Made by a program: the position numbers and the translations under genes | Origin: an uncultured Gammaproteobacteria bacterium | GTDB lineage: Bacteria; Patescibacteriota; Patescibacteriia; Magasanikbacterales; UBA922 | Length of the DNA stretch: 64,000 nt | Direction of reading: 5' to 3' | Assembly (NCBI GenBank): GCA_964447765.1 | Contig: CAYUTO010000002.1 | Location: 148,316-212,315, forward strand | Notes under the pieces: generated by a model | Seen by the model: the letters and a program-made list of their open reading frames with translations, nothing else | Database searches by the model: none | What the model was told of the DNA's origin: nothing | In this document: positions 5,443 to 42,517 of the stretch, piece after piece | How the letters are laid out: every line of letters starts with the position of its first letter | How positions within the stretch are numbered: the stretch's first letter is position 1

Positions 5443-5443
5443 A

Positions 5444-8228: not shown

Positions 8229-8428
8229 ACCTCTCCTGCCCCGGCAGGAGACACCACGAAGCGATGTATGATTCGCTTCAGTAGGTGACGTTCGACGACG
8301 ATCATACAACAACCCGGGGAAGTGCGCGTGCTACGGCACCCGCTTCCCCCTCTCTACTCTGAATTCAAATACTTTTGAAGATAGAGTAAAGAATAACAAA
8401 AAACTCCTGATTATTTCAGGAGTTTTTT
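8229..8428 (+). repeat. Copy B of the ~200-bp structured 3' element. It starts 23 nt after the gene-4 stop.
   Basis: It is near-identical to 5444-5646. The terminator loop differs (ttattt versus gaatat) but the stem is preserved. Confidence 0.7.
8398..8428. terminator. Bidirectional Rho-independent terminator: A6, ctcctga-loop-tcaggag, T6. It forms the end of repeat copy B.
   Basis: The stem-loop is flanked by A and T runs. Confidence 0.7.
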
Positions 8429-25795: not shown

Positions 25796-25837
25796 AAAAA
25801 ACACCCCGCCCTTCTCGAAGGGCGGGGTTGTTTTTTT
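25796..25837 (+). terminator. Strong Rho-independent terminator: ccccgccc-ttctcgaa-gggcgggg, then T-run.
   Basis: A perfect 8-bp GC stem followed by ttgttttttt. Confidence 0.8.
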
Positions 25838-25939: not shown

Positions 25940-28039
25940 ATGGTTACGAAAATCAGAAAGTTAGTCCCATACCTTATAGCAGCAACTTTTATAGCACCTC
26001 TGATTCTCCTCAATAACTATATTTTTCCTTTTATTGTTCCTAAAATAGTCTTTTTTAGATCACTCGTTCTTATTATTGCAGGCTGTTATGCGCTTTTGTT
26101 GGTTTCAAATTTTTCAAAATATAGACCACGTTTTTCATTCCTCACTACAAGTATTTTATTATTTTGGCTGAGTTTTGCTATCTCCACTTTTACCGGTGTA
26201 GATTGGTATCGTAGTTTTTGGGATAATCACGAGCGAATGCTTGGGTTGTTTACCATTACACACTACACCATACTATATCTGATTGCGTCTTCAGTTCTCG
26301 AATTTGATCGTGAGTGGAATACAGTGTTTCGCTCAGCGCTTATCCTTGGATCTCTCGTGATGCTTATCGGCGTATGGCAGAAGTTTGTGAATCCACAGGC
26401 CCTCCTCAATAACGGTTCATGGCGTGTATCTGCAACATTAGGTAATTCTATTTATTATAGTGGATACGGGCTCTTTTTGATGTTTTTGGGTGGGCTACAA
26501 TTTTTCAGGGAACAAAGTAAGAATTGGAAATATGTTGCTCTCAGTGTAGGGTTGTTAGGTTTTTTGGGTATATTTTTTGGAGGAACGAGAGGTACGATTC
26601 TTGGAATGCTTGCAGGTTTTATTACGCTGGCGTTTTGTTATATTGTATTAGAGAAAGAAAAAACCAAAACTCGAACTGTAATTACATACCTTGCTGCAGT
26701 AGGAGTTGTAGTTTTTTCCCTATTATTCGTATTTAGACAAACAGCGTTTGTCTCGGGAATTCCTGGATTGGGACGGCTTTTGAACACGTCATTTTCACTC
26801 AATTCGACTGAGAGTACTCGTCCAATGGCGTGGAGCACTGCGGTTGATGCATGGAAGGAAAAACCACTATTTGGGTGGGGACCTAATAATTTCTACTATG
26901 CGTTCAATGAGCACTACAACCCTCAATTTTTGAAATTTGGGTGGAATGAAACTTGGTTCGATAACGCGCATAGTGTTATTTTTAACACACTCACGGTCCA
27001 GGGAATTGTAGGTATTGCGACGTATCTACTCATCTATATCGCTGCCTGTACGCTTATTTTAGTAGGTGTGCGAAGGGGTATAATCAGGAGTCAGGTGGGG
27101 TATATTTCTGCATCATTTTTAGTGGCACATTTTGTAGGATTGGTGACGGTATTTGAAAATCCAACGTCCTATCTGTACTTTTTTGTCTTTGTAGCTTTTG
27201 TAGCTTTTTCTACCCGCGGTGTCGCATTGCGTAAAAAAAAGGATGTTGAAGAAAAAGAAGAAGTTGTGGTAGTGAAAAAAAATAGTATCACCGAACATGG
27301 TGCGAAAGTTTCCGCGGGTCTCGTGGTGACCGTCGGTGTTGTAGTTTTTTTGTTGGTGTATATTACTGATATTGCTCCTGCGCGAGCAAACAAGGCTACT
27401 ATTGCTGCGATACAAAAAATTTATGCAGGGGTTGCAGACGAGAGGTTGTATGATGATGCATTGGAATTTTCAAGTCCTCATATCGATGATATTAGAAACG
27501 ATATTTCGCGTACGGTCATAGGTGTGCTTCCTCAGTTGGTGCAACAAGGAAAAGGTGAAGAGGCGTTAGTACTATTCAATGAGACGATTGAGGAATTGAA
27601 AAAAAATCAATTACTCCATCCGCTCGATGTGCGGGTGTATTTTGTGCTTTCTCAGTTGTATGAATTTGGCTATCAAGCTACACAGAATACGGAATTTTTA
27701 AGTCAAAGTGAGGCTGCTCTTCGTCAGGCGGTATATTTTTCTCCCAAGCGACAGCAATTTCTCTATGCTCTTTCTCAAAATCTGATTCAACAGGGTAAGC
27801 TGCCTGAAGCAGAAGAAATACTCAAGCGGTCAATCAATGATTTCGAAAATATTGGCGAAGGATGGGTACGACTTGCGGTGATTTATGCTGCACAAAACAA
27901 AACAACAGAGGCGGTTGAAATTGCAAATAAGGTATTAGGGTGGTTCGATAATCCAACTTCTTCAATGTATCAATTGAACCTAGAATGGAAACCAGTATTG
28001 GAACAAATACGAGGGGCAGCAACGTCTACGAGCGAGTAA
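25940..28039 (+). CDS. Wzy_C / O-antigen-ligase-family polytopic membrane protein fused to a C-terminal TPR-repeat domain. It is a candidate O-oligosaccharyltransferase or polymerase.
   Basis: About 12 TM helices. RPMAWSTAVDAWKEKPLFGWGPNNFYYAF is typical of Wzy_C-family periplasmic loops. The C-terminal 250 aa have TPR-like helical repeats (LSQLYEFGYQATQNTEF..., LAVIYAAQNKTTEAVEIA). Confidence 0.6.
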   Translation: MVTKIRKLVPYLIAATFIAPLILLNNYIFPFIVPKIVFFRSLVLIIAGCYALLLVSNFSKYRPRFSFLTTSILLFWLSFAISTFTGVDWYRSFWDNHERMLGLFTITHYTILYLIASSVLEFDREWNTVFRSALILGSLVMLIGVWQKFVNPQALLNNGSWRVSATLGNSIYYSGYGLFLMFLGGLQFFREQSKNWKYVALSVGLLGFLGIFFGGTRGTILGMLAGFITLAFCYIVLEKEKTKTRTVITYLAAVGVVVFSLLFVFRQTAFVSGIPGLGRLLNTSFSLNSTESTRPMAWSTAVDAWKEKPLFGWGPNNFYYAFNEHYNPQFLKFGWNETWFDNAHSVIFNTLTVQGIVGIATYLLIYIAACTLILVGVRRGIIRSQVGYISASFLVAHFVGLVTVFENPTSYLYFFVFVAFVAFSTRGVALRKKKDVEEKEEVVVVKKNSITEHGAKVSAGLVVTVGVVVFLLVYITDIAPARANKATIAAIQKIYAGVADERLYDDALEFSSPHIDDIRNDISRTVIGVLPQLVQQGKGEEALVLFNETIEELKKNQLLHPLDVRVYFVLSQLYEFGYQATQNTEFLSQSEAALRQAVYFSPKRQQFLYALSQNLIQQGKLPEAEEILKRSINDFENIGEGWVRLAVIYAAQNKTTEAVEIANKVLGWFDNPTSSMYQLNLEWKPVLEQIRGAATSTSE

Positions 28040-28061
28040 TTTTATTTTAAATAGTAGTGCT

Positions 28062-28850
28062 ATGAAAACAGTAATTTTGTGTGGCGGAACAGGAACGCGC
28101 ATGAAAGAAGAAACAGAGTTTAAGCCTAAACCACTCGTATTGGTGGGGGGTAAGCCAATTCTCTGGCATATCATGAAAATTTACGCGCATTACGGGCATA
28201 ATGAATTTATTCTTGCATTGGGGTATAAGGGTGACATGATCAAGCAGTACTTTCTTAATTGGAGAAGCTTGCTCAATGATTTTACACTTGATACCAAAAA
28301 TCATGAATTCACCTTCCATAATAATGAATGTGACGACTTTAAAATTACCTTTGCAGAGACTGGTCCAGAAAGTTTGACTGGTGAGCGTGTACGTCGTGTT
28401 CGAAAGTATATCGGGGACGATACAGAGTTTATGGTGACGTACGGTGACGGTGTTGCAAATATCAATATTGCTGAACTGATCGATTTCCATAAAAAACAAA
28501 ATACGGCGGTAACTATTACAGGTGTTCGTCCAACACATCGATTTGGACTCCTTGATATTGATCATACGTCAGAAAAAATTAAAGGTTTTTATCAAAAACA
28601 TGTGACCAATGATACTGATAAAATTTCGAGTGATTATATTAATGGTGGATTTATGGTCTTGAACTCATCTGTTCTTGATCAGATCGAAGAAAATTCAATG
28701 ATTGAATCAATTTTTGAGCCACTTGCAAACAAAGATCAGTTGTCAGTATATAGACATAAGGGTATGTGGAAATGTATGGATACCTACAAAGAAGTTGAAG
28801 AATTAAATAAACAGTGGCACATTGATCCTTTTTGGAAAGTGTGGGCGTAA
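28062..28850 (+). CDS. rfbF: Glucose-1-phosphate cytidylyltransferase (the CDP-glucose pyrophosphorylase RfbF/DdhA).
   Basis: MKTVILCGGTGTRMKEETEFKPKPLVLVGGKPILWHIMKIYAHYGHNEFILALGYKGDMIKQYF is a near-signature for RfbF. Length is 262 aa. Confidence 0.85.
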   Translation: MKTVILCGGTGTRMKEETEFKPKPLVLVGGKPILWHIMKIYAHYGHNEFILALGYKGDMIKQYFLNWRSLLNDFTLDTKNHEFTFHNNECDDFKITFAETGPESLTGERVRRVRKYIGDDTEFMVTYGDGVANINIAELIDFHKKQNTAVTITGVRPTHRFGLLDIDHTSEKIKGFYQKHVTNDTDKISSDYINGGFMVLNSSVLDQIEENSMIESIFEPLANKDQLSVYRHKGMWKCMDTYKEVEELNKQWHIDPFWKVWA

Positions 28851-28865
28851 GTAGGTCTAAAAAAT

Positions 28866-29840
28866 ATGGGTAGTCTAATAAATCAAAATATATTGGTAAC
28901 AGGTGGTGAGGGACTGGTTGGTTCGCACCTGGTGGAGGCTCTACTTCTGAAAAAACCAGGAAAATTAGTAGTACTTTCTCGCGATCGGGATCCTCAATCA
29001 TATTTTGTAGGAACAGAGCTTGAAAACAAAGTCATACGTGCATATGGAGATTTGAAAGATAAAGAGCGGATATTCGATATCGTGACTGCGTATGAAATTA
29101 ACTATATTTTTCATATTGGTGCCCAAGCAATTGTACGTACTGCATTGGTAAATCCCTATGAAACACTTGCAAGTAATATCATGGGTACGATCCATGTGCT
29201 TGAAGCTGCGCGTCTATCCCCGCAGGTAAAAGGTGTAGTAGTTGCATCAAGTGATAAGGCGTATGGAAAAGACTGTGTGGATGCAATAGAGGATCATGAA
29301 TTACGGGGTGATCACCCATACGATGTATCAAAATCATGTACCGATCTGATTGCGCAGACGTATGCTTCGACCTATGGAGTACCAGTCACGATCAGTAGGT
29401 GTGGAAATATTTTTGGTCCAGGAGATTTGCATTTCAACCGGATTGTTCCAGGCTCCATGAAGGCGCTTATTGAGAATGAAACGTTGCAGATACGAAGTAA
29501 TGGTGAATTTGTGCGCGATTATGTGTATGTAAAAGATGTAGTGACTGGGTATGTGCTCTTAGCTGAGCAGATTGAACGTATCAAAGGCGAAGCGTTTAAT
29601 TTTAGTACGGGAAATAATTATAGTGTAATCAATCTGATAAAAAAAATATCAGAAGTTCTCGGATCTGAAATCAAATATACCATTGTAAACAATCAAAAAA
29701 ATGAAATTCCAGAACAGAGTCTAAATTATGAAAAAGTCGTAAAGATACTTGGGTGGAAGCCGGTGGTATCACTTGAGACCGCGCTACAAGAAACATATGA
29801 ATGGTATAAAAATTATTTCAGGAAACAGGAGGGGTTGTAG
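28866..29840 (+). CDS. rfbG: SDR-family NAD-dependent sugar-nucleotide 4,6-dehydratase. It is probably the CDP-glucose 4,6-dehydratase RfbG/DdhB.
   Basis: Gly-rich NAD motif VTGGEGLVGSHL. The SSDKAYG and YDVSK catalytic motifs are of 4,6-dehydratase type. It lies directly downstream of rfbF. Confidence 0.6.
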   Translation: MGSLINQNILVTGGEGLVGSHLVEALLLKKPGKLVVLSRDRDPQSYFVGTELENKVIRAYGDLKDKERIFDIVTAYEINYIFHIGAQAIVRTALVNPYETLASNIMGTIHVLEAARLSPQVKGVVVASSDKAYGKDCVDAIEDHELRGDHPYDVSKSCTDLIAQTYASTYGVPVTISRCGNIFGPGDLHFNRIVPGSMKALIENETLQIRSNGEFVRDYVYVKDVVTGYVLLAEQIERIKGEAFNFSTGNNYSVINLIKKISEVLGSEIKYTIVNNQKNEIPEQSLNYEKVVKILGWKPVVSLETALQETYEWYKNYFRKQEGL

Positions 29841-29849
29841 TAATTATCT

Positions 29850-30743
29850 ATGAGGAATGATAAGGTGAAAGTCGCAATTATTGGGACAGGTAATATCGGA
29901 AGCGATCTGCTCTACAAAGTTCAGAGATCGCCTTTTTTGCGATGTGGCTTATTCACGGGGCGCAATCAGGATTCAGAAGGTATCAGGCGCGCTAAGCGGA
30001 TGGATGTAACAGTGTCCTGTGATTCGATACGTGCAATTGAAGAAAATCCTGACTGTTGTGAAGTGGTGTTCGATACTACGAATGCGGAGTCTCATTTGAT
30101 TCATGCTCCGATATTACAGAAACTGAAAAAATTTACGATAGATCTCACTCCTTCACGTGTAGGAACCTTGTGTGTTCCGTCTATTAATATTGTTGAGGCA
30201 CTAGCAGCTGATAATGTGAATTTGATTACCTGTGGCGGACAGTCGCTTATTCCAATTGCAAAAGCAATATTGGATGTTCATCCGGAAACAGAATATGTAG
30301 AGGCTGTAGGGAGTATCGCTTCAAAATCTGCTGGTCCTGGAACTCGTGCGAATATTGAAGAATATTTACAGACAACGGCGCGCGCGATAGAGAGTTTTTC
30401 GGGTGTGCCTCGCGCAAAAGCAATTCTCATTCTCAATCCTGCAGAGCCGCCTGTATTGATGAGAAATACTCTGTATGCCAAAATTTCCAATCCTAATATT
30501 CCAGAATTGGTTAGAAAAATTACGGAGACTGTTGGTGCTATACAAGCATATGTGCCGGGATACCGCCTTGCTGCAGGACCTATTATTGAGAAAGATAGTG
30601 TGATGGTGATGGTTGAAGTGGTGGGACAGGGAGATTTTTTACCCACCTATGCTGGGAATTTAGACATTATCACCTGTGCAGCTGTTCGTGTTGCTGAAGA
30701 GTATGTAAAACATAAGTCTCAAATGGTTTCCTCTATTGTATGA
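29850..30743 (+). CDS. Acetaldehyde dehydrogenase (acetylating), DmpF/MhpF family.
   Basis: KVAIIGTGNIGSDLLYKV at the N-terminus. The catalytic-Cys region ITCGGQSLIPIAKAI is characteristic of acylating acetaldehyde dehydrogenases. Confidence 0.8.
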   Translation: MRNDKVKVAIIGTGNIGSDLLYKVQRSPFLRCGLFTGRNQDSEGIRRAKRMDVTVSCDSIRAIEENPDCCEVVFDTTNAESHLIHAPILQKLKKFTIDLTPSRVGTLCVPSINIVEALAADNVNLITCGGQSLIPIAKAILDVHPETEYVEAVGSIASKSAGPGTRANIEEYLQTTARAIESFSGVPRAKAILILNPAEPPVLMRNTLYAKISNPNIPELVRKITETVGAIQAYVPGYRLAAGPIIEKDSVMVMVEVVGQGDFLPTYAGNLDIITCAAVRVAEEYVKHKSQMVSSIV

Positions 30744-31756
30744 AAAAACCTATTTTTTTTGACTCAACTTTACGCGATGGTTCGCACGCGATTCAACATC
30801 AGCTTACTTCGGATAATGTGAGGGAATATTGTAAAATGGTGGATAATGCGGGACTCTATACCGTGATTGTCGGTCATGGAAATGGTCTCGGTGCCTCATC
30901 AGTACAGGTGGGTCTGTCACGTACATCTGATCAAGAATTACTTGCTGCAGCTCGATCTGAGTTGAAGGTTACAAAGCTGGGCGTTTTTATATTGCCGGGA
31001 TTTGGAACAATTGAAAATGATTTAGTTCCAGCACTCGAATTAGGAGTTGATCTCGTCTGTGTTGCGTCTCACTGCACAGAAGCTGATGTGACGAAACAAT
31101 ATATTAGTCGGGTAGCAAAGGAGCAAAAAGAGGTATATGGTATTCTCATGATGTATCATATGACTACAAAAGAGCGTCTCCTCGCAGAGGCAGAAAAAAT
31201 GGTAAGCTATGGGGCTATCGGTATCATCATCATGGATTCAGCAGGATCTTCAACACCAGGATTAGTTCGGGAAACCATCTCGTATCTGGTTGAACACCTG
31301 CAGGTACCTGTGGGATTTCATGCGCATAATAATCTGGGAATGGCGATTGGAAATACATTGATAGCACTTGAATCAGGTGCGACCATTGTTGATGGTACGG
31401 TACGTGGATTTGGTGCTGGTGCAGGAAATTGTCAGATTGATGTGATGGTGGCATTGCTTGAAAAAATGGGACATACTACGGGAATTAATGTATATGATTT
31501 GATGGACGCAGCTGATAAGGTGGTGAAAAAAATTATGACCCAACCACAAGAGATTGATTCAGTAAGTATTGCGAGTGGTATGGCAGGTGTATTTTCAGGA
31601 TTTGCGCCACATGTGAAGCGAGCTGCGGAAAAATTTGGGGTTGATGCGCGAGATATTTTTGTTGAACTCGGCAAAAGAAGAGTTGTTGGCGGACAAGAAG
31701 ATATGGTGATTGAGGTGGCGATTGAATTATCAAAAAAGAAAAATGTATTATCATAA
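30740..31756 (+). CDS. 4-hydroxy-2-oxovalerate aldolase-like (DmpG/MhpE family, DRE-TIM metallolyase).
   Basis: PIFFDSTLRDGSHAIQHQLT matches the DmpG active-site region (D.TLRDG.HA..HQ). It overlaps the upstream DmpF-like gene by 4 nt, as in dmpFG operons. Confidence 0.8.
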   Translation: MKKPIFFDSTLRDGSHAIQHQLTSDNVREYCKMVDNAGLYTVIVGHGNGLGASSVQVGLSRTSDQELLAAARSELKVTKLGVFILPGFGTIENDLVPALELGVDLVCVASHCTEADVTKQYISRVAKEQKEVYGILMMYHMTTKERLLAEAEKMVSYGAIGIIIMDSAGSSTPGLVRETISYLVEHLQVPVGFHAHNNLGMAIGNTLIALESGATIVDGTVRGFGAGAGNCQIDVMVALLEKMGHTTGINVYDLMDAADKVVKKIMTQPQEIDSVSIASGMAGVFSGFAPHVKRAAEKFGVDARDIFVELGKRRVVGGQEDMVIEVAIELSKKKNVLS

Positions 31757-31759
31757 TGT

Positions 31760-33556
31760 ATGAATGTCGCTGATTTTATTTTCAAATACTTTGGTGAACG
31801 TGGTGTAAATCACGTCTTTACGATTACCGGAGGGCACGCGATGTTTTTAAACGATGCGGTTGCTAAAAACAAAAATTTTACATACACCTGCCCTCATCAT
31901 GAGCAAAGCGCAGCTATGGCTGCTGAGGCATATAGTCGTGTGGCAAATAAGCCAGGAATTGTAATGGTTACTGCAGGTCCTGGAGCAGTGAATGCGCTCA
32001 CAGGGGTCGTAGGTGCTTGGGTAGATTCTTCACCAATGATTGTTATTTCCGGCCAATCAAATTTACCTATCGTGCAGTACGCAGAAAAAACAGATATTCG
32101 ACAATTTGGTGTGCAGGGGATTAGTATTAGAAAAATAGTGACCCCAATTACCAAGTATTTTGTAACAGTGGATGATCCAGCTCGGATCGGAGAATATGTG
32201 GCTGAAGCATGGAAACAGGTAACGACAGGCAGGCCTGGTCCTGTGTGGATTGAGGTGCCAGTCGATATGCAACGCTCAGAAGTACCACAATCAGTAATCG
32301 ATGCTTATGGGTCGCCAGAAGACATATTAATTAAACCTGAGGAAGCATCGAAGGAGTTGTTAGAAAAAGTCGCTGCAGTATATGAGCGCATTCAAAAAGC
32401 AGAGCGACCACTGTTTATTTTTGGACAAGGTGTTCGATTGTCCGGAGGAATTTCAGCTTTTGAAGCAGTGATTAAAAAAATAAAAATTCCACTTCTAACA
32501 TCACGATTGGGTTTGGATATTATTACGAGTGATCATCCACTGTATGCGGGTCGTCCAGGAACCTATGGAGAGCGTTCAGCAAATTTTGCTGTGCAAAATG
32601 CTGATTTGATTATTGCAATTGGATCTCGTCTCACCGTTTCTCTGACCGGGTATAATGTAGCCGATTTTGGTCGTAATGCAGAAAAAATTATTGTCGATAT
32701 TGATCAAAAAGAATTAGAAAAACCAGATTTAAATATTGTATTACCCGTATTAGCTGACGCAAAAGTGTTTTTAACTGAATTAGCGGCATATGCTGAAGAT
32801 AAGTCGAGTATTGAAAGACCTGAATGGGCGGAGATTTGTCAGAATTGGCGAAAAAAATATCCTGTAGTATTACCTTCGTATAAAGATGAAAAACCAGTGA
32901 ATTCGTATTACTTCACCGGTCGTTTAACTGAGCTCACTCCACCGGGTGCAAACATTCTCGTTGATACGGGATCTTGTTTTCATGTCGCAGCACAAACATG
33001 GGTAATAAAAGAAGGGCAGAGATTTTTGACTACCGGAGGAATTTCTACTATGGGGTATTGGGTGGCAGGTATCGGATCATGTATTGCCGCAGGAAATAAG
33101 CCCACTATAGTGATTACTGGAGATGGTAGTTTGCAAATGAATTTACAGGAGTTAGCAACTGTCAAAATAAATAATTTGCCTCTGAAGATTTTTATTTTTA
33201 ATAACAATGGTTATTTATTGATGCGCCATACGCAACGTAATTTTTTTGAAGGTCGTATGATTGGGGAGAGTCCGGCGTCCGGCGTCTGGTGCCCTGATTC
33301 TCTAAAAATTGCAGAAGTGTATGGTATCAAAGGAGTTCGTATTTCCTCAGTGGATGAGGTAGATCAGAAAATTAAAGAGGTACTAGACCATGACGGACCT
33401 GTAATTTGTGATGTGATGACTCCTGAATGGCAATTTCTCATGCCTCGGGTGACATCGGAAAAAGGTCCTGATGGAAAAATGTTTTCGAATCCTTATGAAA
33501 ATATGTTTCCATTTTTGAGTAAAGAAGAGCTTGATGAAAATATGATTGTAACCTAA
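31760..33556 (+). CDS. Thiamine-pyrophosphate (TPP)-dependent enzyme of the acetolactate-synthase large-subunit family (YerE-like candidate).
   Basis: Canonical ALS/TPP N-terminal domain: GVNHVFTITGGHAMFLNDAVA...CPHHEQSAAMAAEAYSRVANKPGIVMVTAGPGAVNALTGVVGAWVDSSPMIVISGQ. It is 598 aa and has a GDGS TPP-binding region. Confidence 0.75.
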   Translation: MNVADFIFKYFGERGVNHVFTITGGHAMFLNDAVAKNKNFTYTCPHHEQSAAMAAEAYSRVANKPGIVMVTAGPGAVNALTGVVGAWVDSSPMIVISGQSNLPIVQYAEKTDIRQFGVQGISIRKIVTPITKYFVTVDDPARIGEYVAEAWKQVTTGRPGPVWIEVPVDMQRSEVPQSVIDAYGSPEDILIKPEEASKELLEKVAAVYERIQKAERPLFIFGQGVRLSGGISAFEAVIKKIKIPLLTSRLGLDIITSDHPLYAGRPGTYGERSANFAVQNADLIIAIGSRLTVSLTGYNVADFGRNAEKIIVDIDQKELEKPDLNIVLPVLADAKVFLTELAAYAEDKSSIERPEWAEICQNWRKKYPVVLPSYKDEKPVNSYYFTGRLTELTPPGANILVDTGSCFHVAAQTWVIKEGQRFLTTGGISTMGYWVAGIGSCIAAGNKPTIVITGDGSLQMNLQELATVKINNLPLKIFIFNNNGYLLMRHTQRNFFEGRMIGESPASGVWCPDSLKIAEVYGIKGVRISSVDEVDQKIKEVLDHDGPVICDVMTPEWQFLMPRVTSEKGPDGKMFSNPYENMFPFLSKEELDENMIVT

Positions 33557-33557
33557 C

Positions 33558-34439
33558 ATGCAAACAATACTTCTTACAGGCGGTAGTGGTTTTATTGGTC
33601 GAAATATTATCGAACAATTGGGGGCTACATATACTATTCTCGCTCCAAGCCATCATGAGCTTGAGCTTACTGACACCAAAGCAGTCGAATCATATCTGAA
33701 ACAGCATGCAGTTGATCTGGTCATTCATAGTGCAAATAGGGGAGGATCACGTGCGGATGCCACACAAGCTGGGGTCGCAGCATCGAACCTTCGAATTTTT
33801 TATAACATCATTCAGGCAAAACAATATTACAAACGCTTGATTGTGCTTGGATCTGGAGCTGAATATGATAAGTGTTTACCTTTGAAACAGATTTCTGAAA
33901 TTTTTTTTGGTACGTCTATTCCTGCTGATGAATATGGGTTATACAAATATGTATGCGCCAGATATGCAGAGCAGGTTGACTACATCACACATCTTCGATT
34001 ATTTGCTGTATTTGGAAAATATGAAGATTATCGGATTCGATTTATTTCAAATGCTATTTGCAAAGCATTACTTGATTTACCAATTACGATTAAGCAAAAT
34101 GTAGTGTTTGATTACGTGTATGTTGATGATGTGGTTTCACTGCTTGATTTGATAATTGCTAACCCAACAAGTGAAAAGATTATTAATGTCGGGTCAGGAA
34201 TGCCTGTGGATCTAAAAACGATTGCAGAAAAAATTTTAACTATACTAGATAAAAAATTGCCTATTGTAGTTGGAAAATCTGGGCTTGGCAATGAATACTC
34301 GGCAGATATCGGACTCTTGAAAAAAACATATCCTAATGCTAAGGTTACCTCGCTTGATGTGGCGCTTCAAAGTTTAATCGATTATTATCGGCCTATTGCC
34401 GAAACGTTGGATACAGAAGCATTTCTCGCAGATATATAA
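33558..34439 (+). CDS. NAD(P)-dependent SDR-family sugar-nucleotide reductase/epimerase (RmlD-like in size).
   Basis: LLTGGSGFIGRNIIEQL Rossmann motif. It is 293 aa and lies in a sugar context. Confidence 0.6.
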   Translation: MQTILLTGGSGFIGRNIIEQLGATYTILAPSHHELELTDTKAVESYLKQHAVDLVIHSANRGGSRADATQAGVAASNLRIFYNIIQAKQYYKRLIVLGSGAEYDKCLPLKQISEIFFGTSIPADEYGLYKYVCARYAEQVDYITHLRLFAVFGKYEDYRIRFISNAICKALLDLPITIKQNVVFDYVYVDDVVSLLDLIIANPTSEKIINVGSGMPVDLKTIAEKILTILDKKLPIVVGKSGLGNEYSADIGLLKKTYPNAKVTSLDVALQSLIDYYRPIAETLDTEAFLADI

Positions 34440-34443
34440 ATAT

Positions 34444-35397
34444 ATGGAAATAAACAGAAAAAAATTAATTAGTATTGTCACTCCATGCTACAACGAAGAG
34501 TTGAATGTAGAAGAGTTGTATACTGAAGTAAAAAAAGTAATGACTGAATTGTCGCAGTATGACTATGAGCATATTTTTATTGATAATGCATCAGCTGATA
34601 AAACAGTCGACATATTGAAGCGTCTTGCTGCAGTAGATCATAAGGTAAAAATTATTGTAAATGTACGAAACTTTGGGCATATTCGCTCACCATATTATGG
34701 TGTGCAACAGGCACACGGAGACGCTATTATCCTTATGGCTTCAGACTTGCAAGATCCGCCGCATCTAATCAAAGAGCTAACACGAAAATGGGAAGAGGGG
34801 AATGATATCGTGGTTGCAGTAAAAAATAAAAGTGAGGAAAATAAATTATTATTTGCAGTTCGAAAAGTGTATTATACACTGATAAAAAAATTGTCTGAGG
34901 TGGAACAGATAAAGAATTTTACCGGATTCGGGCTTTATGACCAGAAATTTATCAAAGTACTTCGCACCTTTGATGAGCCATACCCGTATTTCCGCGGACT
35001 AATTACTGAAATTGGTTTTAAACGCGCTGAGATTACGTATGTCCAGCCTACACGCAAGCGTGGAAAAACCAGTAATAATTTCTATTCGCTCTACGACCTT
35101 GCAATGGTAGGATTTGTAAATCATTCTAAATTTCCGATTCGTCTCGCAAGCCTCATTGGTTTTGGTATGTCCATTGTAAGCTTGTTAGTCGCTGTGGTGT
35201 ATTTGATATACAAATTATTGTATTGGGATCGATTTGAGGCAGGGTTTGCGCCAGTAACGATTGGATTATTTTTCTTTGGGTCAATACAATTATTTTTTAT
35301 TGGTATTATCGGAGAATATGTAGGGGCAATTCATACGCAAGTAAAAAATCGTCCACTCGTTATTGAAAAAGAACGTGTTAACTTTGATTCAAAATAG
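34444..35397 (+). CDS. GT2 polyprenyl-phosphate glycosyltransferase (DPM1/GtrB/ArnC-like) with a C-terminal two-helix membrane anchor.
   Basis: ISIVTPCYNEELNVEEL...IFIDNASADKT and DLQDPP form the GT-A DXD region. The C-terminal TM helices are typical of GtrB/ArnC. The ORF track starts at 34396. The ATG at 34444 avoids overlap. Confidence 0.7.
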   Translation: MEINRKKLISIVTPCYNEELNVEELYTEVKKVMTELSQYDYEHIFIDNASADKTVDILKRLAAVDHKVKIIVNVRNFGHIRSPYYGVQQAHGDAIILMASDLQDPPHLIKELTRKWEEGNDIVVAVKNKSEENKLLFAVRKVYYTLIKKLSEVEQIKNFTGFGLYDQKFIKVLRTFDEPYPYFRGLITEIGFKRAEITYVQPTRKRGKTSNNFYSLYDLAMVGFVNHSKFPIRLASLIGFGMSIVSLLVAVVYLIYKLLYWDRFEAGFAPVTIGLFFFGSIQLFFIGIIGEYVGAIHTQVKNRPLVIEKERVNFDSK

Positions 35398-35415
35398 CAC
35401 ACGTAAGTAAGAAAT

Positions 35416-35445
35416 AAAAAATCAGGCCTCGAGCCTGGTTTTTTG
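35416..35445 (+). terminator. Rho-independent terminator: caggc-ctcga-gcctg, then T7.
   Basis: Hairpin plus T run after the GT2 gene stop. Confidence 0.5.
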
Positions 35446-35471
35446 AATATAAGTAATAGCGAGGTCAAATA

Positions 35472-35500
35472 TTGACCTTTTTGGTAGTTTGTGATAGATT
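35472..35500 (+). promoter_or_regulatory. sigma70-like promoter: TTGACC, 17 nt, TAGATT. The -35 lies within a small palindrome, ggtcaaatattgacc.
   Basis: Read directly. It is the same -10 hexamer as the gene-4 promoter. AAGGAGG lies 9 nt before the ATG at 35552. Confidence 0.6.
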
Positions 35501-35551
35501 CTTCTATCTTCTAGATCCACAGTGGGTCAGAAGTTTAAGGAGGATAGGATA

Positions 35552-36109
35552 ATGAGTCTTCAGGATGATATGGACGCGCTGTTGGGTGGAGTCGACCCAG
35601 CGAGCCCTGAGTACAAGGCCGTGGTGGCCCGCCTCATGAACAAGATCGACCCCATGATGCCGCTCGGTACGCCGCTTCATAGCGCCTGCGTTCGTCTGAA
35701 CGGAGGAATCGCCTTCGAGGCTGCCTGCATACGCCTGAGCCGCGATAATGGTAAGATCGAGGTGTACCTCAGGCGGCGTGGTGACAACGAAGATGCTCAT
35801 CCGGGGCAGTGGCATCTGCCAGGAAGCTTCGTGCGTCAAGGAGAGCAGATCGAGATCACTGCATGGCGGTTGGGCAAGGGAGAATTCAAGTCCCTGGTCA
35901 CTGACTTCCGGCACGTCGGCGACTTCAAGACTCCGGACGATCGAGGGGAGATCGAATCCAAGCTGTTCCGCGTCTGGCTCGACACTGGGCCGCAGATCGA
36001 CGAGCGCCATCAATGGTTCCCGTACGATCAACTGCCGGACAAGATGGTCGACTTCCACGCAGAGACACTGATTCCTGCTGCCGTGGAGTTCGTTCGTCAG
36101 GGACGCTAG
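35552..36109 (+). CDS. High-GC NUDIX-fold protein with a degenerate Nudix box (paralog A).
   Basis: HPGQWHLPGSFVRQGEQIEITAWRLGKGEF aligns with the Nudix G.W..PGG.VE.GE... segment, but the REUxEE catalytic residues are not conserved. GC-rich third codon positions contrast with the surrounding AT-rich genes. Confidence 0.6.
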   Translation: MSLQDDMDALLGGVDPASPEYKAVVARLMNKIDPMMPLGTPLHSACVRLNGGIAFEAACIRLSRDNGKIEVYLRRRGDNEDAHPGQWHLPGSFVRQGEQIEITAWRLGKGEFKSLVTDFRHVGDFKTPDDRGEIESKLFRVWLDTGPQIDERHQWFPYDQLPDKMVDFHAETLIPAAVEFVRQGR

Positions 36110-36187
36110 TCTCAGGCCTAGGAATCTACAACATAGGTTCCGTCCATCACCTCACAAGGGTGGTGGACGGGGCTCATAAATTAACTA

Positions 36188-36210
36188 GGCAACAGAATTG
36201 CCTTTTTTTG
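36188..36210 (+). terminator. Rho-independent terminator: ggcaa-cagaa-ttgcc, then T7. It is preceded by a 12-bp GC-rich stem-loop at 36139-36169.
   Basis: Read directly. Confidence 0.6.
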
Positions 36211-36224
36211 TTTGAAATGATAGG

Positions 36225-36848
36225 ATGAGAGCATATTTTAGCCAAATTGTTATGCCAAGAACGTCCTCAAAAAAGGTAAAGATGCGGAGCACTATTTCAG
36301 AGAAATTAGAACATTTTGGTATTACACCTCATGAGGTTATTGAGCTCTTTGAGAGTCTTGTGGAAAATACATGGAAAGATAAAGATAAGGAGCTCATACA
36401 TAGTGATAATTCTCTCGATAAAAGGTTATTCGAAGCAATTGCAAAACTTGGTATTTCAGTTGCACTCGAAGCTGTGCTATTGCGTACCAAAGGAGGGAAT
36501 ACTGAGGTCTTTATGACAAAGCGAGGGAAGTATGAAAGTTTTCCAGGGCAGTGGCATTGTCCAGGTAGTGTATTCCGTCCAGGCGAGTTTCCTCGTAATG
36601 TAGTCGACCGACTTGCAGACAAAGAATTCAAAGCAAAAATCACCCTTGAAAGTGATTGTGTGACTGATCTATTTATCAAAGAAATGCGCGGATGGTTTTT
36701 GTCACGAGTGTATCTGGTGAGTGTAGTAGGAAAGCCGACTTCAAAAGGAAAATGGTTTTCAGTTACCAAATTGCCAAAAAATACCGTTGCACATCATCAA
36801 AACTTTGTGATTCCAAAAGCAGTGAAGCAGTATAAAAAATTGAAATAA
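36225..36848 (+). CDS. Low-GC NUDIX-fold protein with a degenerate Nudix box (paralog B of 35552-36109).
   Basis: FPGQWHCPGSVFRPGEFPRNVVDRLADKEF is homologous to HPGQWHLPGSFVRQGE... in the upstream gene, at roughly 30-35% identity over about 140 aa. Codon usage is native AT-rich. The true start may be downstream, near 36282. Confidence 0.6.
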   Translation: MRAYFSQIVMPRTSSKKVKMRSTISEKLEHFGITPHEVIELFESLVENTWKDKDKELIHSDNSLDKRLFEAIAKLGISVALEAVLLRTKGGNTEVFMTKRGKYESFPGQWHCPGSVFRPGEFPRNVVDRLADKEFKAKITLESDCVTDLFIKEMRGWFLSRVYLVSVVGKPTSKGKWFSVTKLPKNTVAHHQNFVIPKAVKQYKKLK

Positions 36849-36851
36849 GCT

Positions 36852-38162
36852 ATGGACGACAAATTGAAACAACTATTGATTGAAGATTATAATGCTCGAT
36901 TTGCGGTAAAACCATTTGTTCCTGGTGTTTCAGTAGTTCCTGTATCTGGAAAAGTATTTGATACTGAGGAAATTATCAATGCGACCGAAGCAGTACTTGA
37001 AGGCTGGTGGACTGATGGCAAATATACTGCTATGTTTGAACATCGCATGGCACAGTGGCTTGGTGTAAAGTATGGTTGTTTTGTGAATTCAGGTTCGTCT
37101 GCAAATCTTATCGCCGTGACCGCTCTTACCTCAATGAAATTGCAAGAAAAAAGACTGAAACCCGGAGACGAAGTAATTACGGTCGCAGCAGGATTCCCAA
37201 GTACGGTAAATCCGATTGTGCAGAATGGATTGGTTCCTGTATTTGTCGATGTTGATCTAGGAACTTATAATGCGAACATTGAAGCTATCAAGCAAGCAGT
37301 GTCTCCGAAGACCCGGGCAATTATGATTGCTCATACTCTGGGTAATCCATTTGATCTAGGAGCAATCAAAGAATTATGTGACAAGCATGATTTCTGGCTT
37401 ATTGAAGACAATTGTGATGCCTTGGGAGCGACATTTAATGGTAAAAAGACAGGTACATTTGGGCATATTGCAACTTGTAGTTTTTATCCAGCGCACCACA
37501 TTACTACCGCAGAAGGTGGAATGGTATTTACGAATAACTCGAGACTGTACAAGATTATTGAATCAATCAGAGATTGGGGGCGTGATTGTTGGTGCGAAAC
37601 AGGTAAAGATAATACCTGTCAAAAGCGTTTTTGTTGGCAATTGGGAGAATTGCCTTACGGGTATGATCATAAATATATTTATTCAGAAATGGGTTATAAC
37701 CTGAAAGCTACTGATATTCAGGCAGCACTTGGGCTTGCACAATTTGCAAAACTGGATTCTTTTATTGAAAAAAGAAGAGAGAACTTTAACATCTTGTACG
37801 AAGGATTAAAAAAATTCGAAGAATATTTTATATTGCCATCGTGGCAAAAGGAAGTTAATCCAAGTTGGTTTGGGTTTCTGATTACGCTCAAAGACACTGC
37901 TCCATTCACACGCGATGAACTTGTACAATACTTGCAAGATAAAAAAATTGGAACCAGATTTTTGTTTGCAGGCAATATTTTGAGGCAGCCTTATTTTGTT
38001 GATCGAGAAATTGAGTATCGTGTGGTAGGGGAGTTAAAAAATGCTGACACCATTGTAAAAAACACGTTCTGGATCGGTGTATATCCGGGGCTTACCCACG
38101 AAATGCTTGAATACATTATTACGATTTTTGAAGAGTTTGTGAGCAAACGCTCTACCTTATGA
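36852..38162 (+). CDS. rfbH: CDP-6-deoxy-D-xylo-4-hexulose-3-dehydrase (E1; DdhC/RfbH/AscC-like). It is a PMP-dependent [2Fe-2S] 3-deoxygenation enzyme.
   Basis: DegT/DnrJ/EryC1 fold (VNSGSSANL...). FYPAHHITTAEGG has His-His where aminotransferases have the PLP lysine. The exact Cys spacing C-X57-C-X1-C-X7-C (EDNC...RDCWCETGKDNTC) is the E1 iron-sulfur signature. It is 436 aa. Confidence 0.8.
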   Translation: MDDKLKQLLIEDYNARFAVKPFVPGVSVVPVSGKVFDTEEIINATEAVLEGWWTDGKYTAMFEHRMAQWLGVKYGCFVNSGSSANLIAVTALTSMKLQEKRLKPGDEVITVAAGFPSTVNPIVQNGLVPVFVDVDLGTYNANIEAIKQAVSPKTRAIMIAHTLGNPFDLGAIKELCDKHDFWLIEDNCDALGATFNGKKTGTFGHIATCSFYPAHHITTAEGGMVFTNNSRLYKIIESIRDWGRDCWCETGKDNTCQKRFCWQLGELPYGYDHKYIYSEMGYNLKATDIQAALGLAQFAKLDSFIEKRRENFNILYEGLKKFEEYFILPSWQKEVNPSWFGFLITLKDTAPFTRDELVQYLQDKKIGTRFLFAGNILRQPYFVDREIEYRVVGELKNADTIVKNTFWIGVYPGLTHEMLEYIITIFEEFVSKRSTL

Positions 38163-40426
38163 TCGCAACCATACTGTACATAGTAGCTTGGATGGTTCTC
38201 GGTGGGTTTTCAATCATCGCGTATTCATCAATTTTTGCAAAGAATTGTTTTTTTCAATCAAGCACATTGCTATGTCCGGCAACGCTGACGCTTGGACAAA
38301 AAATTCTCAGCTTCTCTATAGTGGTATTCATGATTATCGCTTTTCTTTTTTTTGGGCGAATCGTATGGAAATGGTTTAAAGAACAGATGGTTCCTTCAAA
38401 ATGGAAAAATAGTGTAGGGATTGCAGTTATAGCTGCTGCACTATTAGTAGTGCCATTTGGATCAAGTGACATGAGCTATTATTTTGCAGCTGGCAGGGCA
38501 CAAGATGAAGGGCTGAATATCTATACCGAAGTCTGGCAAATGGAAAAAGATTTCGTATATCCCGTGCCCCACGATACGATCATTGGATTTTCCTATGGAC
38601 CCATTATCGCGCATATATTCAGAGTTTTGTATCAGATGTCTGGAGGAGAGATTGTATGGTTCATGCTGTACTGGAAAGTATTCATGCTCGGCTGTATTTT
38701 TGCAGCCGTATTTTTAATAAAAAAATTGTTACAGGTACTTGGTGCATCGATAGATAAAAAGGTGCTATATGCAGTGCTCGTGTTACAGCCATTGCTCTTG
38801 TTCGAAGTCCTGGTTAATGGTCATTTTGATATAGCATGGTTACTTGCGGTGTTGGCAGCAATTATCTATGCGCATAACAAAAGGTGGTCGTTGGTTATCC
38901 CACTCCTGATTCTCGGTGTATGGATAAAATTTATCCCAGCCCTCATTGCACCTTTTTTTCTTCTATGGTGGTGGCAATCATTCACCAAAGAAAATTGGAG
39001 AGTACAGGTACGTGAAACGATAGGGGGTATACTTCTTGGTGGTTTAGTAAGTGTTGCTGCATGGTATTCTTATTGGGAGGGCTTCACAGTCTTTAAATCA
39101 GTCCTCATACAATCAAAGTGGGCAGTGATGAGTCTCTTTGCTTCATTATACTTTTCGTTAAAGCCCTTATTTGCTAGTTTGTTTCAAGATGGGGCACATC
39201 AAGTACTTACTCTCCTGGTGCATGGAGTAGTCTTTGCACTATTCGTCTATTTCCTGTGGCCATATGTGACGAAAGTGATAGGAATCGTACGTAAGAAAAT
39301 AATCTGGAGTACGAGTGAATATATCACCGCGATGTTTGTATTTTTGCTGGTGTACTTGCTCGTGTGGCAAAAGTCATTTTTGCCGTGGTATGGTCTATGG
39401 TTTCTGCCGTTTGGTTTGATATTGTATAGCATTCATAAGAATGTTTTTGTTCTCCGAATCACTCACTGGCTCACGATTACTCCGTTTGTGTACTATGTGT
39501 TATGGCTCATTGATTGGTATCTCACAAGAACTGACGCAGGGAATGAAGTATGGTTTTATTGGTCAATAGTCGTTATTGTTTTTCTATATCCGCTTCATAC
39601 ACTACTCGTGTGGAGAAAAAATTCATTTGAAATTAAAGAGTCTAGCACAGAACATCAGTCCGTTAAGGGTGACAGTCTAATCAGTTTTGTATTTCGCCAA
39701 ATATATAAAATAGTTTTTGCGTATCCATTCAGCGCAATCGTTACAGGTATTTTTCTTTTCAAGAAATTACCAAAAGATGAAAAAAAGACATGTACACATT
39801 GTTTTATTATAACCTCAGTGATTTATCCAAAAAATATTGCATTAAGTTACGCATCCACTCGTTCAGTGTATTCTCCAGAGCAAAGATATGAGCAGACTCT
39901 TGCAACCATTGATTCAATACGGGGGAGTGTACCTGCGGCACATATCGTATGTGTCGAAGCTGGACTTCGATCTGAGCCATTTGATTTGAAGCATAAAGTG
40001 GATACCTATATATATGCTGGCGATAGTAGGCTCGTGCGGAATGCGTGTGACAGTAGCCTCAAAAGTCTGGGAGAAGTTACGATGCTGGTGCATGCATATA
40101 AGAAGCTCCCTCAAGCACAGAGATATTTCAAAATTAGTGGAAGATATTGCTTGAACAATGACTTTAGTCTGCATGAATGGGAGAAAGGTGAGATAGTATA
40201 TCACTACATTCGACCTGATTTTATCTCGACCAGACTGTATAGTTTTACTTTTGCCACGAAGCATGAATGGTACAAGGCATTGATTGTGGGAATTCCATAT
40301 CTATTTCTTGATTATCCGATCGAGCATACGCTAGCACGCTTTACCAAGAAAGAGCCTATTTCAAAAATTGAAACAGTGGGTATCATGGGCGCTGATGCTA
40401 CTAATGGAAAAGAAGTAAAAGAGTAA
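38159..40426 (+). CDS. Large polytopic membrane protein of unknown function. It has about 14 TM helices (GT-C-like) plus a ~250-aa C-terminal soluble domain.
   Basis: Hydrophobic periodicity through residue ~500. The C-terminal domain (CTHCFIITSVIYPKN...) has no motif I recognise. It is embedded in the glycosylation operon and overlaps the E1 stop by 4 nt. Confidence 0.45.
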   Translation: MIATILYIVAWMVLGGFSIIAYSSIFAKNCFFQSSTLLCPATLTLGQKILSFSIVVFMIIAFLFFGRIVWKWFKEQMVPSKWKNSVGIAVIAAALLVVPFGSSDMSYYFAAGRAQDEGLNIYTEVWQMEKDFVYPVPHDTIIGFSYGPIIAHIFRVLYQMSGGEIVWFMLYWKVFMLGCIFAAVFLIKKLLQVLGASIDKKVLYAVLVLQPLLLFEVLVNGHFDIAWLLAVLAAIIYAHNKRWSLVIPLLILGVWIKFIPALIAPFFLLWWWQSFTKENWRVQVRETIGGILLGGLVSVAAWYSYWEGFTVFKSVLIQSKWAVMSLFASLYFSLKPLFASLFQDGAHQVLTLLVHGVVFALFVYFLWPYVTKVIGIVRKKIIWSTSEYITAMFVFLLVYLLVWQKSFLPWYGLWFLPFGLILYSIHKNVFVLRITHWLTITPFVYYVLWLIDWYLTRTDAGNEVWFYWSIVVIVFLYPLHTLLVWRKNSFEIKESSTEHQSVKGDSLISFVFRQIYKIVFAYPFSAIVTGIFLFKKLPKDEKKTCTHCFIITSVIYPKNIALSYASTRSVYSPEQRYEQTLATIDSIRGSVPAAHIVCVEAGLRSEPFDLKHKVDTYIYAGDSRLVRNACDSSLKSLGEVTMLVHAYKKLPQAQRYFKISGRYCLNNDFSLHEWEKGEIVYHYIRPDFISTRLYSFTFATKHEWYKALIVGIPYLFLDYPIEHTLARFTKKEPISKIETVGIMGADATNGKEVKE

Positions 40427-40427
40427 T

Positions 40428-41729: not shown

Positions 41730-41730
41730 T

Positions 41731-42516: not shown

Positions 42517-42517
42517 T

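Follow-up and report, generated by a model that had tools for sequence, protein, structure and literature searches.

We conclude that a stretch of 64,000 nucleotides (nt) on contig CAYUTO010000002.1 of GenBank assembly GCA_964447765.1, hereafter the window, quite probably carries an erwiniose-type module for the synthesis of an acyl-branched deoxysugar, set inside a large surface-glycan locus. The product is predicted to resemble erwiniose, which has a four-carbon (C4) branch, rather than yersiniose, which has a two-carbon (C2) branch. The precedent is the erwiniose cluster of Pectobacterium atrosepticum SCRI1043, which encodes the thiamine diphosphate (ThDP)-dependent enzyme ErwE, the reductase ErwF, the BphI-like ErwI and the BphJ-like ErwJ (Steitz et al. 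2022, PMC9306805), and also holds the genes for cytidine diphosphate (CDP)-4-keto-3,6-dideoxy-D-glucose (PMC9306805). In the scheme of these authors, ErwJ converts acetyl-CoA to acetaldehyde, ErwI joins this to pyruvate, ErwE installs the C4 branch and ErwF carries out the reduction (PMC9306805). The pathway has been partly reconstituted (PMC9306805) and is also covered by a review (PMC12247030). An initial annotation of the window had recognized a CDP-4-keto-3,6-dideoxyhexose module in which a ThDP enzyme adds a carbon branch, which we judge to be right from the gene set, and had been puzzled by a DmpF/DmpG-like gene pair embedded in it. Because the published erwiniose cluster has the same enzyme set, this pair is no longer odd.

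The genes of the proposed pathway are listed below. Coordinates are those of the whole window, and gene identities come from a map of open reading frames (ORFs) combined with Pfam and NCBIfam scans.

28062 to 28850, + strand: RfbF-like glucose-1-phosphate cytidylyltransferase (TIGR02623, Pfam NTP_transferase)
28866 to 29840, + strand: RfbG-like extended short-chain dehydrogenase/reductase (SDR), a divergent CDP-glucose 4,6-dehydratase (TIGR02622, S-D-K and YxxxK motifs)
29850 to 30743, + strand: ErwJ/BphJ/DmpF-like acylating acetaldehyde dehydrogenase (TIGR03215)
30740 to 31756, + strand: ErwI/BphI/DmpG-like class II pyruvate aldolase (TIGR03217, HMGL-like and DmpG_comm)
31760 to 33556, + strand: ErwE/YerE-like ThDP-dependent carboligase (three TPP domains)
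33558 to 34439, + strand: ErwF/YerF-like SDR (Pfam Epimerase and RmlD_sub_bind)
36852 to 38162, + strand: E1 (RfbH/DdhC/AscC) 3-dehydrase (NF011936)

Every ORF named in the initial annotation was recovered at the same coordinates and on the + strand by the ORF map and the Pfam and NCBIfam scans, and all of its gene identifications were confirmed. Intergenic spacing is −4 to +22 nt across 25940–35397 and again across 36225–43183. Because this spacing is so tight, the sugar genes are a real co-directional cluster and not a chance juxtaposition. We observed the gene identities, the motifs, the synteny and the aldolase signature described below directly.

The dehydrogenase matches TIGR03215 with 367.6 bits (cut-off 282), aligns with the structure PDB 7Z3S at 313 bits and with DmpF (1NVM_B) at 237 bits, and has its catalytic residue, Cys128, within a TCGGQ motif. 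The aldolase reaches 386 bits against TIGR03217 (cut-off 286), is composed of HMGL-like and DmpG_comm domains, and in an alignment with 1NVM keeps the DmpG metal-binding and catalytic residues Arg17, Asp18, His21, His200 and His202. The stop of the dehydrogenase gene overlaps the start of the aldolase gene by 4 nt, and a gap of 3 nt separates the aldolase gene from the ThDP gene.

The aldolase carries a distinctive signature at two positions linked to stereocontrol in BphI. That enzyme is strictly 4S-specific; its Y290F variant loses stereocontrol, and the L87W/Y290F and L87N/Y290F variants are 4R-specific (review, PMC3962088). The window aldolase has Phe83 at the position of BphI Leu87 (DmpG Leu88) and Phe285 at that of BphI Tyr290 (DmpG Tyr291). 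Phenylalanine occupies the Tyr290 position in all 77 ThDP-linked aldolases (77/77), and each of the 75 that cover the Leu87 site has Phe, Tyr or His there. Five catabolic controls from a meta-cleavage context keep Leu and Tyr, namely DmpG, NahM of NAH7, E. coli MhpE, a Geobacillus bph-linked enzyme and a Ralstonia enzyme. In a neighbour-joining tree, the catabolic aldolases formed a clade separate from the sugar-linked ones. Because the replacements of Leu87 and Tyr290 parallel those of the 4R-specific BphI mutants, the sugar-linked aldolases appear to be natural equivalents of the engineered 4R variants, and such a signature would fit the preference of ErwE for (R)-4-hydroxy-2-oxopentanoate. 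Two further DmpG-family aldolases with an accompanying dehydrogenase and Phe in place of Tyr290 are encoded away from any ThDP or E1 gene: L087 (Kitasatospora aureofaciens plasmid NZ_CP020568.1, 129991–131882) and L086 (Rhizobium lusitanum p_1). The Kitasatospora genes are surrounded by those for a NUDIX protein, an FAH-family protein, a phosphopantetheine-binding protein, an HpcH-type aldolase, a MaoC dehydratase and a GNAT protein. This suggests that 4R-type aldolases serve other biosynthetic roles too.

The ThDP enzyme was correctly described as YerE-like. Its best solved relatives in PDB are JanthE (8RPH, 386 bits) and PpYerE (5AHK, 255 bits), and acetohydroxyacid synthase structures reach 233 bits at most. 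The catalytic Glu48 is present, as is a ThDP motif of the canonical form, GDG-X24-NNN. The SDR gene that starts 1 nt after the ThDP gene encodes GGSGFIG and YGLYK motifs, and its product is predicted to be an NAD(P)H-dependent reductase of the new side-chain ketone. An SDR of about 295 amino acids (aa) also follows the ThDP gene in the related loci L081, L084 and L085 and in the P0095 locus, and in L082 one unrelated gene lies between the two.

The arrangement of these genes recurs widely. A database search with the ThDP enzyme returned thousands of homologues, the closest named ones belonging to Patescibacteria (Harrisonbacteria, Falkowbacteria and Magasanikbacteria). We sampled, in one scan, the 80 closest loci from GTDB species genomes, in which the ThDP enzyme is 54–89% identical and among which Pectobacterium does not occur, and scored synteny by tblastn with ten window proteins. 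In 69 of the 69 loci with at least 2.1 kb of upstream sequence, the ThDP gene is preceded on its own strand by the dehydrogenase and aldolase genes, in the order seen in the window; the pair directly adjoins it in 67 of these and is set off by one inserted gene in the other 2. Since this arrangement recurs in 69/69 loci across phyla, the dehydrogenase–aldolase–ThDP cassette is a conserved unit and not peculiar to the window. The suggestion in the initial annotation that the pair could supply the donor therefore pointed the right way, but its description as an unusual addition, possibly with a new branching chemistry, does not hold for a pair present in every one of these loci. Among 41 loci with 9 kb on either side, E1 was found in 36, RfbF in 33 and the RfbG-like SDR in 40. 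The recurring core in five loci annotated with Pfam consists of a nucleotidyltransferase, an SDR dehydratase, E1 (in 4 of the 5), the dehydrogenase, the aldolase, the ThDP enzyme, the SDR and usually a GT2 glycosyltransferase, often with a GtrA-like protein.

The loci span about ten phyla, including Patescibacteria, Bacillota, Elusimicrobiota, Omnitrophota, Lentisphaerota, Planctomycetota (Phycisphaerae), Desulfobacterota and Gastranaerophilales. The carriers in the Bacillota are Lachnospiraceae and other Clostridia and include cultured strains, namely Lachnotalea glycerini DSM 28816, Clostridium gasigenes DSM 12272 and Pseudobutyrivibrio sp. JW11. Seven loci (L001, L002, L048 and L003–L006) with ThDP enzymes 73–89% identical to that of the window have the same gene order. 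Their records bear the names Parcubacteria, 'Candidatus Udaeobacter' or 'uncultured Gammaproteobacteria'; some of these labels of metagenome-assembled genomes are probably wrong, so that they are no guide to the taxonomy of the window. In a Magasanikbacteria locus (L085:12694-20053), the ThDP and SDR genes are followed by genes for three radical SAM/SPASM enzymes and several methyltransferases, which hints that the branched sugar is tailored further in some lineages.

We see next to no chance that the pair is a remnant of a meta-cleavage pathway, or the ThDP enzyme an acetolactate synthase (ALS), placed among sugar genes by accident. Both the dehydrogenase and the aldolase do pass the NCBI equivalog cut-offs of the catabolic enzymes, and the best NCBIfam family of the ThDP enzyme is that of the ALS large subunit. 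However, the ThDP enzyme stays under every ALS cut-off (359.7 bits against 538 for TIGR00118), and true, plasmid-borne ALSs are 30–34% identical to it, compared with at least 54% within the sugar-linked clade; a plasmid search with the ThDP enzyme yielded only ALSs of at most 34% identity and no YerE-like example. A hydratase gene adjoins the aldolase gene in 4 of the 4 catabolic controls checked, whereas among the 49 window ORFs scanned there is no hydratase (such as 2-keto-4-pentenoate hydratase), dioxygenase or hydrolase, nor any ALS small-subunit or ACT gene. The close junctions of the pair with each other and with the sugar genes, the synteny across phyla, the loss of the catabolic Leu and Tyr and the separate aldolase clade all point the same way. 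The catabolic and ALS readings, which the initial annotation had itself raised as possible objections, are thus effectively refuted by synteny and context, scores and phylogeny.

The initial annotation had taken the product to be of the yersiniose type. The ThDP enzyme would then use pyruvate to form a C2 acetyl branch, and the DmpF/DmpG-like pair would merely supply or recycle pyruvate and acetaldehyde. YerE, the founding member of the subclass, does use pyruvate (PMC9306805, PMC12247030), the acceptor-forming genes are common to both sugars, and JanthE accepts pyruvate as well as 4-hydroxy-2-oxovalerate (PMC12188165). On the other hand, ErwE, from the sole tested cluster of such composition, did not accept pyruvate and needed the aldolase product: it couples 4-hydroxy-2-oxopentanoate to a ketone analogue of the sugar and picks the R enantiomer from the racemate (PMC9306805). 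The invariable position of the pair upstream of the ThDP gene is hard to square with mere pyruvate supply, and the clade-wide change in aldolase stereocontrol matches the R configuration that ErwE uses. With the same gene set known for erwiniose, we consider a C2 branch distinctly unlikely.

Of the four genes expected for the sugar acceptor of an erwiniose-type pathway, the window has three, those for the cytidylyltransferase, the 4,6-dehydratase and E1. RfbF matches TIGR02623 over its full length with 279.9 bits, just under the cut-off of 300.25, and the next family reaches 84 bits. For the dehydratase, the best NCBIfam match is the CDP-glucose 4,6-dehydratase family TIGR02622 (189.6 bits, below the cut-off). 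Its S-D-K and YxxxK motifs align with 1RKX and 1WVG, both solved CDP-glucose 4,6-dehydratases, the former matching their TSDK; the deoxythymidine diphosphate (dTDP) enzyme 6BI4 has TDE where the window protein has S-D-K. E1 scores 701.1 bits against NF011936 (cut-off 423) and 570 bits against the solved Yersinia E1 (3BCX), compared with 213 bits against ColD, which has no cluster. The two E1 motifs reported by the initial annotation were confirmed as exact in alignment with the Yersinia enzyme. His215-His216, within PAHHIT, replaces the lysine that binds pyridoxal 5'-phosphate, with His215 aligned to Yersinia His220, and the cysteines Cys188-X57-Cys246-X1-Cys248-X7-Cys256 align with Yersinia Cys193/251/253/261. 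From these residues, E1 is predicted to be a pyridoxamine 5'-phosphate (PMP)- and [2Fe-2S]-dependent CDP-4-keto-6-deoxy-D-glucose 3-dehydrase.

The fourth acceptor gene, that for the E1 reductase E3, is not in the 64-kb window, in agreement with the initial annotation. Pfam scans of the 49 large ORFs did not find the E3 architecture (Fer2 plus a domain like that of ferredoxin-NADP reductase, FNR); a motif scan validated on NahAa found nothing in the window or in 80 related loci; and neither NahAa nor a small E3-like protein of related loci gave a tblastn match in the window. A 4Fe-4S ferredoxin motif scan of the small ORFs of the window was also negative, and two plant-type-ferredoxin-like cysteine patterns in short ORFs were judged to be due to chance. 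More widely, a classical E3 occurs in none of the surveyed loci of the ThDP clade, and 81 of 85 related loci have no dedicated E3. The remaining four, L030 (Wirthbacteria), L049, L055 and L075, carry a small FNR-like gene that was detected by tblastn with NahAa, as follows.

L030, 5493 to 6176: FNR-like gene, directly after E1
L075, 6249 to 6956: FNR-like gene, directly after E1
L049, 579 to 1286: FNR-like gene, just upstream of the dehydrogenase gene (E1 off the contig)
L055, 3 to 455: FNR-like gene, just upstream of the dehydrogenase gene (E1 off the contig)

The encoded proteins, of 227–235 aa, have NAD_binding_1 and FAD_binding_8 domains and no ferredoxin (Fer2) domain, and may be minimal substitutes for E3. 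Repeating the search with these small proteins as queries revealed no further loci and no match in the window. An E1 that lacks an E3 has a precedent, since SpnQ, an E1 homologue with no dedicated E3, works with general ferredoxin or flavodoxin reductase pairs (PMC8987622). By analogy with SpnQ, the E3-less loci, including the window, presumably rely on general ferredoxin/flavodoxin systems.

The same observations could be taken to mean that E1, having no E3 in the window or in most related loci, acts as a 4-aminotransferase, as SpnQ does when no reductase is present (PMC8987622), so that the module would make a 4-amino sugar. We consider this very improbable. The catalytic lysine of E1 is replaced by histidine and all four cluster cysteines are kept, so that every dehydrase determinant is present where the initial annotation had allowed for an aminotransferase without them. 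Furthermore, E1 itself shows no transaminase activity under the conditions that elicit it in SpnQ (PMC8987622), the ThDP carboligase needs a 4-keto acceptor, and the FNR-like reductases of four related clusters, which follow E1 in L030 and L075, point to a reductive route.

We propose the following pathway, in which the direction of the dehydrogenase–aldolase pair, the donor specificity and the C4 branch are taken from the published biochemistry of homologues. RfbF would make CDP-D-glucose, which the S-D-K-type SDR would convert to CDP-4-keto-6-deoxy-D-glucose, and E1, with PMP and its [2Fe-2S] cluster, would remove the 3-hydroxyl group to give CDP-4-keto-3,6-dideoxy-D-glucose. E1 would draw its electrons from a reductase encoded outside the window, probably one that belongs to a housekeeping ferredoxin or flavodoxin system. 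Meanwhile, the DmpF/BphJ-like dehydrogenase would reduce acetyl-CoA with NADH to acetaldehyde and hand this to the DmpG/BphI-like aldolase, which would condense it with pyruvate to 4-hydroxy-2-oxopentanoate, predicted to be the 4R form. The ThDP enzyme would then decarboxylate this keto acid and add the resulting 3-hydroxybutanoyl unit to C4 of the keto sugar, generating a tertiary alcohol, after which the SDR would reduce the side-chain ketone to yield a CDP-erwiniose-like sugar (in erwiniose nomenclature, a 3,6,8-trideoxy-4-C-(1-hydroxyethyl)-octose). Finally, the GT2 glycosyltransferase encoded downstream would probably transfer the finished sugar to polyprenyl phosphate, from which the GT-C protein whose gene is coupled to that of E1 would probably pass it to a surface acceptor. 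We infer the stereochemistry and the electron donor, as well as the lipid-linked route and the acceptor.

A variant of this pathway would start from a different acyl-CoA and aldehyde (propionyl-CoA and propionaldehyde, say) or follow another stereochemistry, and would lead to a C5-branched or epimeric sugar not yet described. With ErwE, conversion of 4-hydroxy-2-oxohexanoate exceeds that of 4-hydroxy-2-oxopentanoate (76% against 49%; PMC9306805), the identity of at least 54% is one within the clade and not one to ErwE, and the relative L085 has the extra methyltransferases and radical SAM enzymes described above. The position of BphI Leu89, a residue that limits aldehyde length (PMC3962088), is Leu in the window aldolase and Ile in most relatives. 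This substitution may be read as room for another aldehyde, but the retention of a bulky residue favours short ones, and acetyl-CoA is both the simplest and the published substrate. We regard a different branch as unlikely.

Several points weigh against an erwiniose-type assignment. The clade is known from sequence alone, and the likeness to erwiniose concerns the enzyme set as published and not the sequences of ErwE, ErwF, ErwI and ErwJ (WP_011093010-13) or YerE. Propionaldehyde could be the aldehyde partner in view of the preference of ErwE for the hexanoate, and a C2 branch is compatible with the sequence of the ThDP enzyme, whose closest solved relative, JanthE, takes pyruvate. The stereochemical prediction leans on mutants of a single enzyme, BphI. 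RfbF and the dehydratase both fall under their equivalog cut-offs, and the 64-kb window contains no E3 or other E1 reductase. The gene order is J-I-E-F here and apparently E-F-J-I in Pectobacterium, as judged from consecutive accessions, and the module includes two NUDIX-like genes that have no role in the erwiniose scheme.

The genes that flank or interrupt the sugar genes, and that bear on the fate of the product, are as follows.

25940 to 28039, + strand: Wzy_C membrane protein with C-terminal TPR repeats (Pfam Wzy_C, 63.6 bits, and TPR)
34444 to 35397, + strand: GT2 glycosyltransferase of polyprenyl-phosphate type, PgfS/ArnC/GtrB-like (Pfam Glycos_transf_2)
35522 to 36109, + strand: NUDIX-fold protein 1 (Pfam NUDIX, 32.8 bits)
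36225 to 36848, + strand: NUDIX-fold protein 2 (Pfam NUDIX, weak, 14.9 bits)
38159 to 40426, + strand: polytopic membrane protein with a GT-C-type N-terminal part (homology to L082 genes)

The GT2 ORF opens with a TTG at 34396, and its likely start is the ATG at 34444. The protein, of 317 aa, scores 197 bits against the PgfS family NF047588 and 113 bits against ArnC, both below the cut-offs, and has two C-terminal transmembrane segments at about residues 230–262 and 266–291 of the 317 (computed on a construct starting five residues later). A GT2 gene after the SDR gene recurs in relatives. The gene at 38159–40426 overlaps the E1 stop by 4 nt and encodes 755 aa with about 11–12 hydrophobic segments; the protein has no direct Pfam match. 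Its residues 8–506 are 42% identical to the product of an L082 gene with the Pfam family PF26314 (MptA_B GT-C family), and its residues 486–755 are 48% identical to that of the next L082 gene. By these matches, it is a fusion of two proteins encoded separately in L002 and L082, an MptA_B GT-C protein and a protein of about 250–270 aa, and it is a candidate for the enzyme that moves the lipid-linked sugar onto the final acceptor. Together, the GT2 and GT-C genes suggest a route from CDP-sugar via lipid-phosphate-sugar to an extracytoplasmic acceptor.

The two NUDIX genes, which sit between the GT2 gene and E1, are paralogous (34% identity, BLASTP 2e-19), and both products have a degenerate Nudix box with no strict match. 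Gene 1 has about 60% GC in surroundings of 40% GC and is flanked by gaps of 154 and 115 nt, and its membership in the pathway is uncertain; gene 2 ends 3 nt upstream of E1. Both are kept in the closest relatives L001–L005; L024 has a weak match that is cut short by the end of its contig, and more distant loci lack them. We also considered that they might be a split 2,3-dehydratase of the EvaA type, which is disfavoured by the lack of a Pfam Hexose_dehydrat match, the weak and generic NUDIX matches and the degenerate box.

At the other end of the module, the Wzy_C-TPR gene is the first gene past a strong bidirectional terminator at 25803–25828, just 5' of the sugar genes, and ends 22 nt 5' of rfbF; L082 shows this arrangement too. 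The gene probably belongs to the rfbF transcription unit, and its product may act as a ligase, as a polymerase or as an O-oligosaccharyltransferase like PglL. The terminator was the sole convincing signal of the promoter and terminator scan, in which the promoters found in the window (41, compared with 45.6 expected) were not above chance. Rfam and tRNA scans of the window gave no match.

The sugar module sits within an island of about 54 kb (8.5–62 kb) of surface-glycan type, which encodes GT4 and GT2 transferases, two Wzy_C proteins (the second at 9586–11061), a Wzx-type flippase and two PMT_2 GT-C enzymes. It further encodes methyltransferases, an AsnB-like amidotransferase, a UDP-glucose dehydrogenase, epimerases and an initiating phosphoglycosyltransferase. 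A gene at 22141–25758, which ends at the terminator, encodes a protein of 1205 aa with a signal peptide, rich in Ser, Thr, Ala and Val and devoid of Pfam domains; it is a candidate S-layer protein or surface glycoprotein substrate. Amid the glycosyltransferase genes, 14215–14583 encodes a '23S rRNA intervening sequence protein' (PF05635, a four-helix bundle). Near position 8250, the GC content switches within 250 bp, from 53–63% in 1–8250 to about 35–46% in the remainder. The high-GC part has long overlapping ORFs on both strands and codes for Cys-rich proteins with collagen-type GXY and Dictyostelium-CTDC-like repeats, one of which (5935–8205) has a lipoprotein-like signal. The switch could be the join of a chimeric assembly or the edge of a horizontally acquired block.

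The pathway itself is already known and the role of its DmpF/DmpG-type enzymes published, so that the locus adds one more example and does not overturn current understanding. Of modest interest are the spread over many phyla, the signature in the aldolase, the organisation without E3 and the likely lipid-linked delivery. To our knowledge, erwiniose-type sugars are known solely from a few Gram-negative lipopolysaccharide (LPS) structures. With this cassette also present in Clostridia, Patescibacteria, Elusimicrobiota, Omnitrophota and others, such sugars are predicted on many cell surfaces that have yet to be characterised. More tentatively, and with odds that we put below even, the loci may define a widespread branched-sugar clade, present in at least ten phyla, in which a natural 4R-specific class II aldolase with Phe for BphI Tyr290 feeds a ThDP carboligase and E1 operates with no classical E3; in the probably Patescibacteria-like host of the window, a polyprenyl-phosphate GT2 and the fused GT-C enzyme would deliver an erwiniose-like or undescribed sugar to a surface protein or glycan. 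If true, it would be the first time that an acyl-branched octose glycoconjugate is predicted beyond Gram-negative LPS and mycobacterial lipooligosaccharides. In the annotation of such loci, DmpF/DmpG-like and 'acetolactate synthase' genes should be taken neither for aromatic catabolism nor for the synthesis of branched-chain amino acids; when found with RfbF, RfbG and RfbH, the DmpF/DmpG-like and ThDP genes predict a C4-branched 3,6-dideoxy sugar. For biocatalysis, the signature of Phe for Tyr290 with an aromatic residue for Leu87 suggests that 4R-selective aldolases of the BphI type occur in nature, and many ketone-accepting ThDP carboligases can be drawn from the clade.

Compared with DmpFG, BphIJ, MhpEF and HsaFG, the window pair has the same domains (HMGL-like, DmpG_comm and AcetDehyd-dimer), the same catalytic and metal-binding residues and the dehydrogenase cysteine, and its adjacent, overlapping genes likewise suggest a channelling complex. 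Unlike these pairs, it is predicted to run in the synthetic direction, has no hydratase or ring-cleavage context, carries Phe83 and Phe285 for BphI Leu87 and Tyr290 and falls in a separate clade. SpnQ, the 3-dehydrase for a thymidine diphosphate (TDP)-sugar of spinosyn, resembles the window E1 as an E1-type dehydrase with PMP and a [2Fe-2S] cluster but no dedicated E3; it differs in its TDP-2,6-dideoxy substrate and its place in secondary metabolism, whereas the window protein scores as an RfbH equivalog. JanthE of Janthinobacterium sp. HH01 and PpYerE are, like the window ThDP enzyme, YerE-like carboligases of the ketone-accepting type, although JanthE has a CDG in place of the canonical GDG of the ThDP motif.

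The yersiniose A pathway of Y. pseudotuberculosis (DdhA-D, YerE and YerF) shares the acceptor CDP-4-keto-3,6-dideoxy-D-glucose, an E1 closely similar to that of the window (570 bits to 3BCX), a ThDP enzyme of the YerE-like subclass and a reductase that follows it. It differs in that YerE takes pyruvate and needs no aldolase or dehydrogenase, that the branch is C2 and not the predicted C4, and that Yersinia has a dedicated E3 (DdhD/AscD). The erwiniose cluster belongs to an enterobacterium with LPS, whereas the host of the window is uncultured and probably Patescibacteria-like; moreover, the window has no visible E3, contains the two inserted NUDIX-like genes and apparently delivers its sugar via a polyprenyl-phosphate GT2 and a GT-C enzyme. 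The two nevertheless have in common a YerE-like carboligase, next to which the window has a predicted NAD(P)H reductase, a BphI/BphJ-like pair, genes for the acceptor (three of the four in the window) and a nearby glycosyltransferase, and the predicted logic is the same, in that the aldolase product would serve as the ThDP donor and give rise to the C4 branch.

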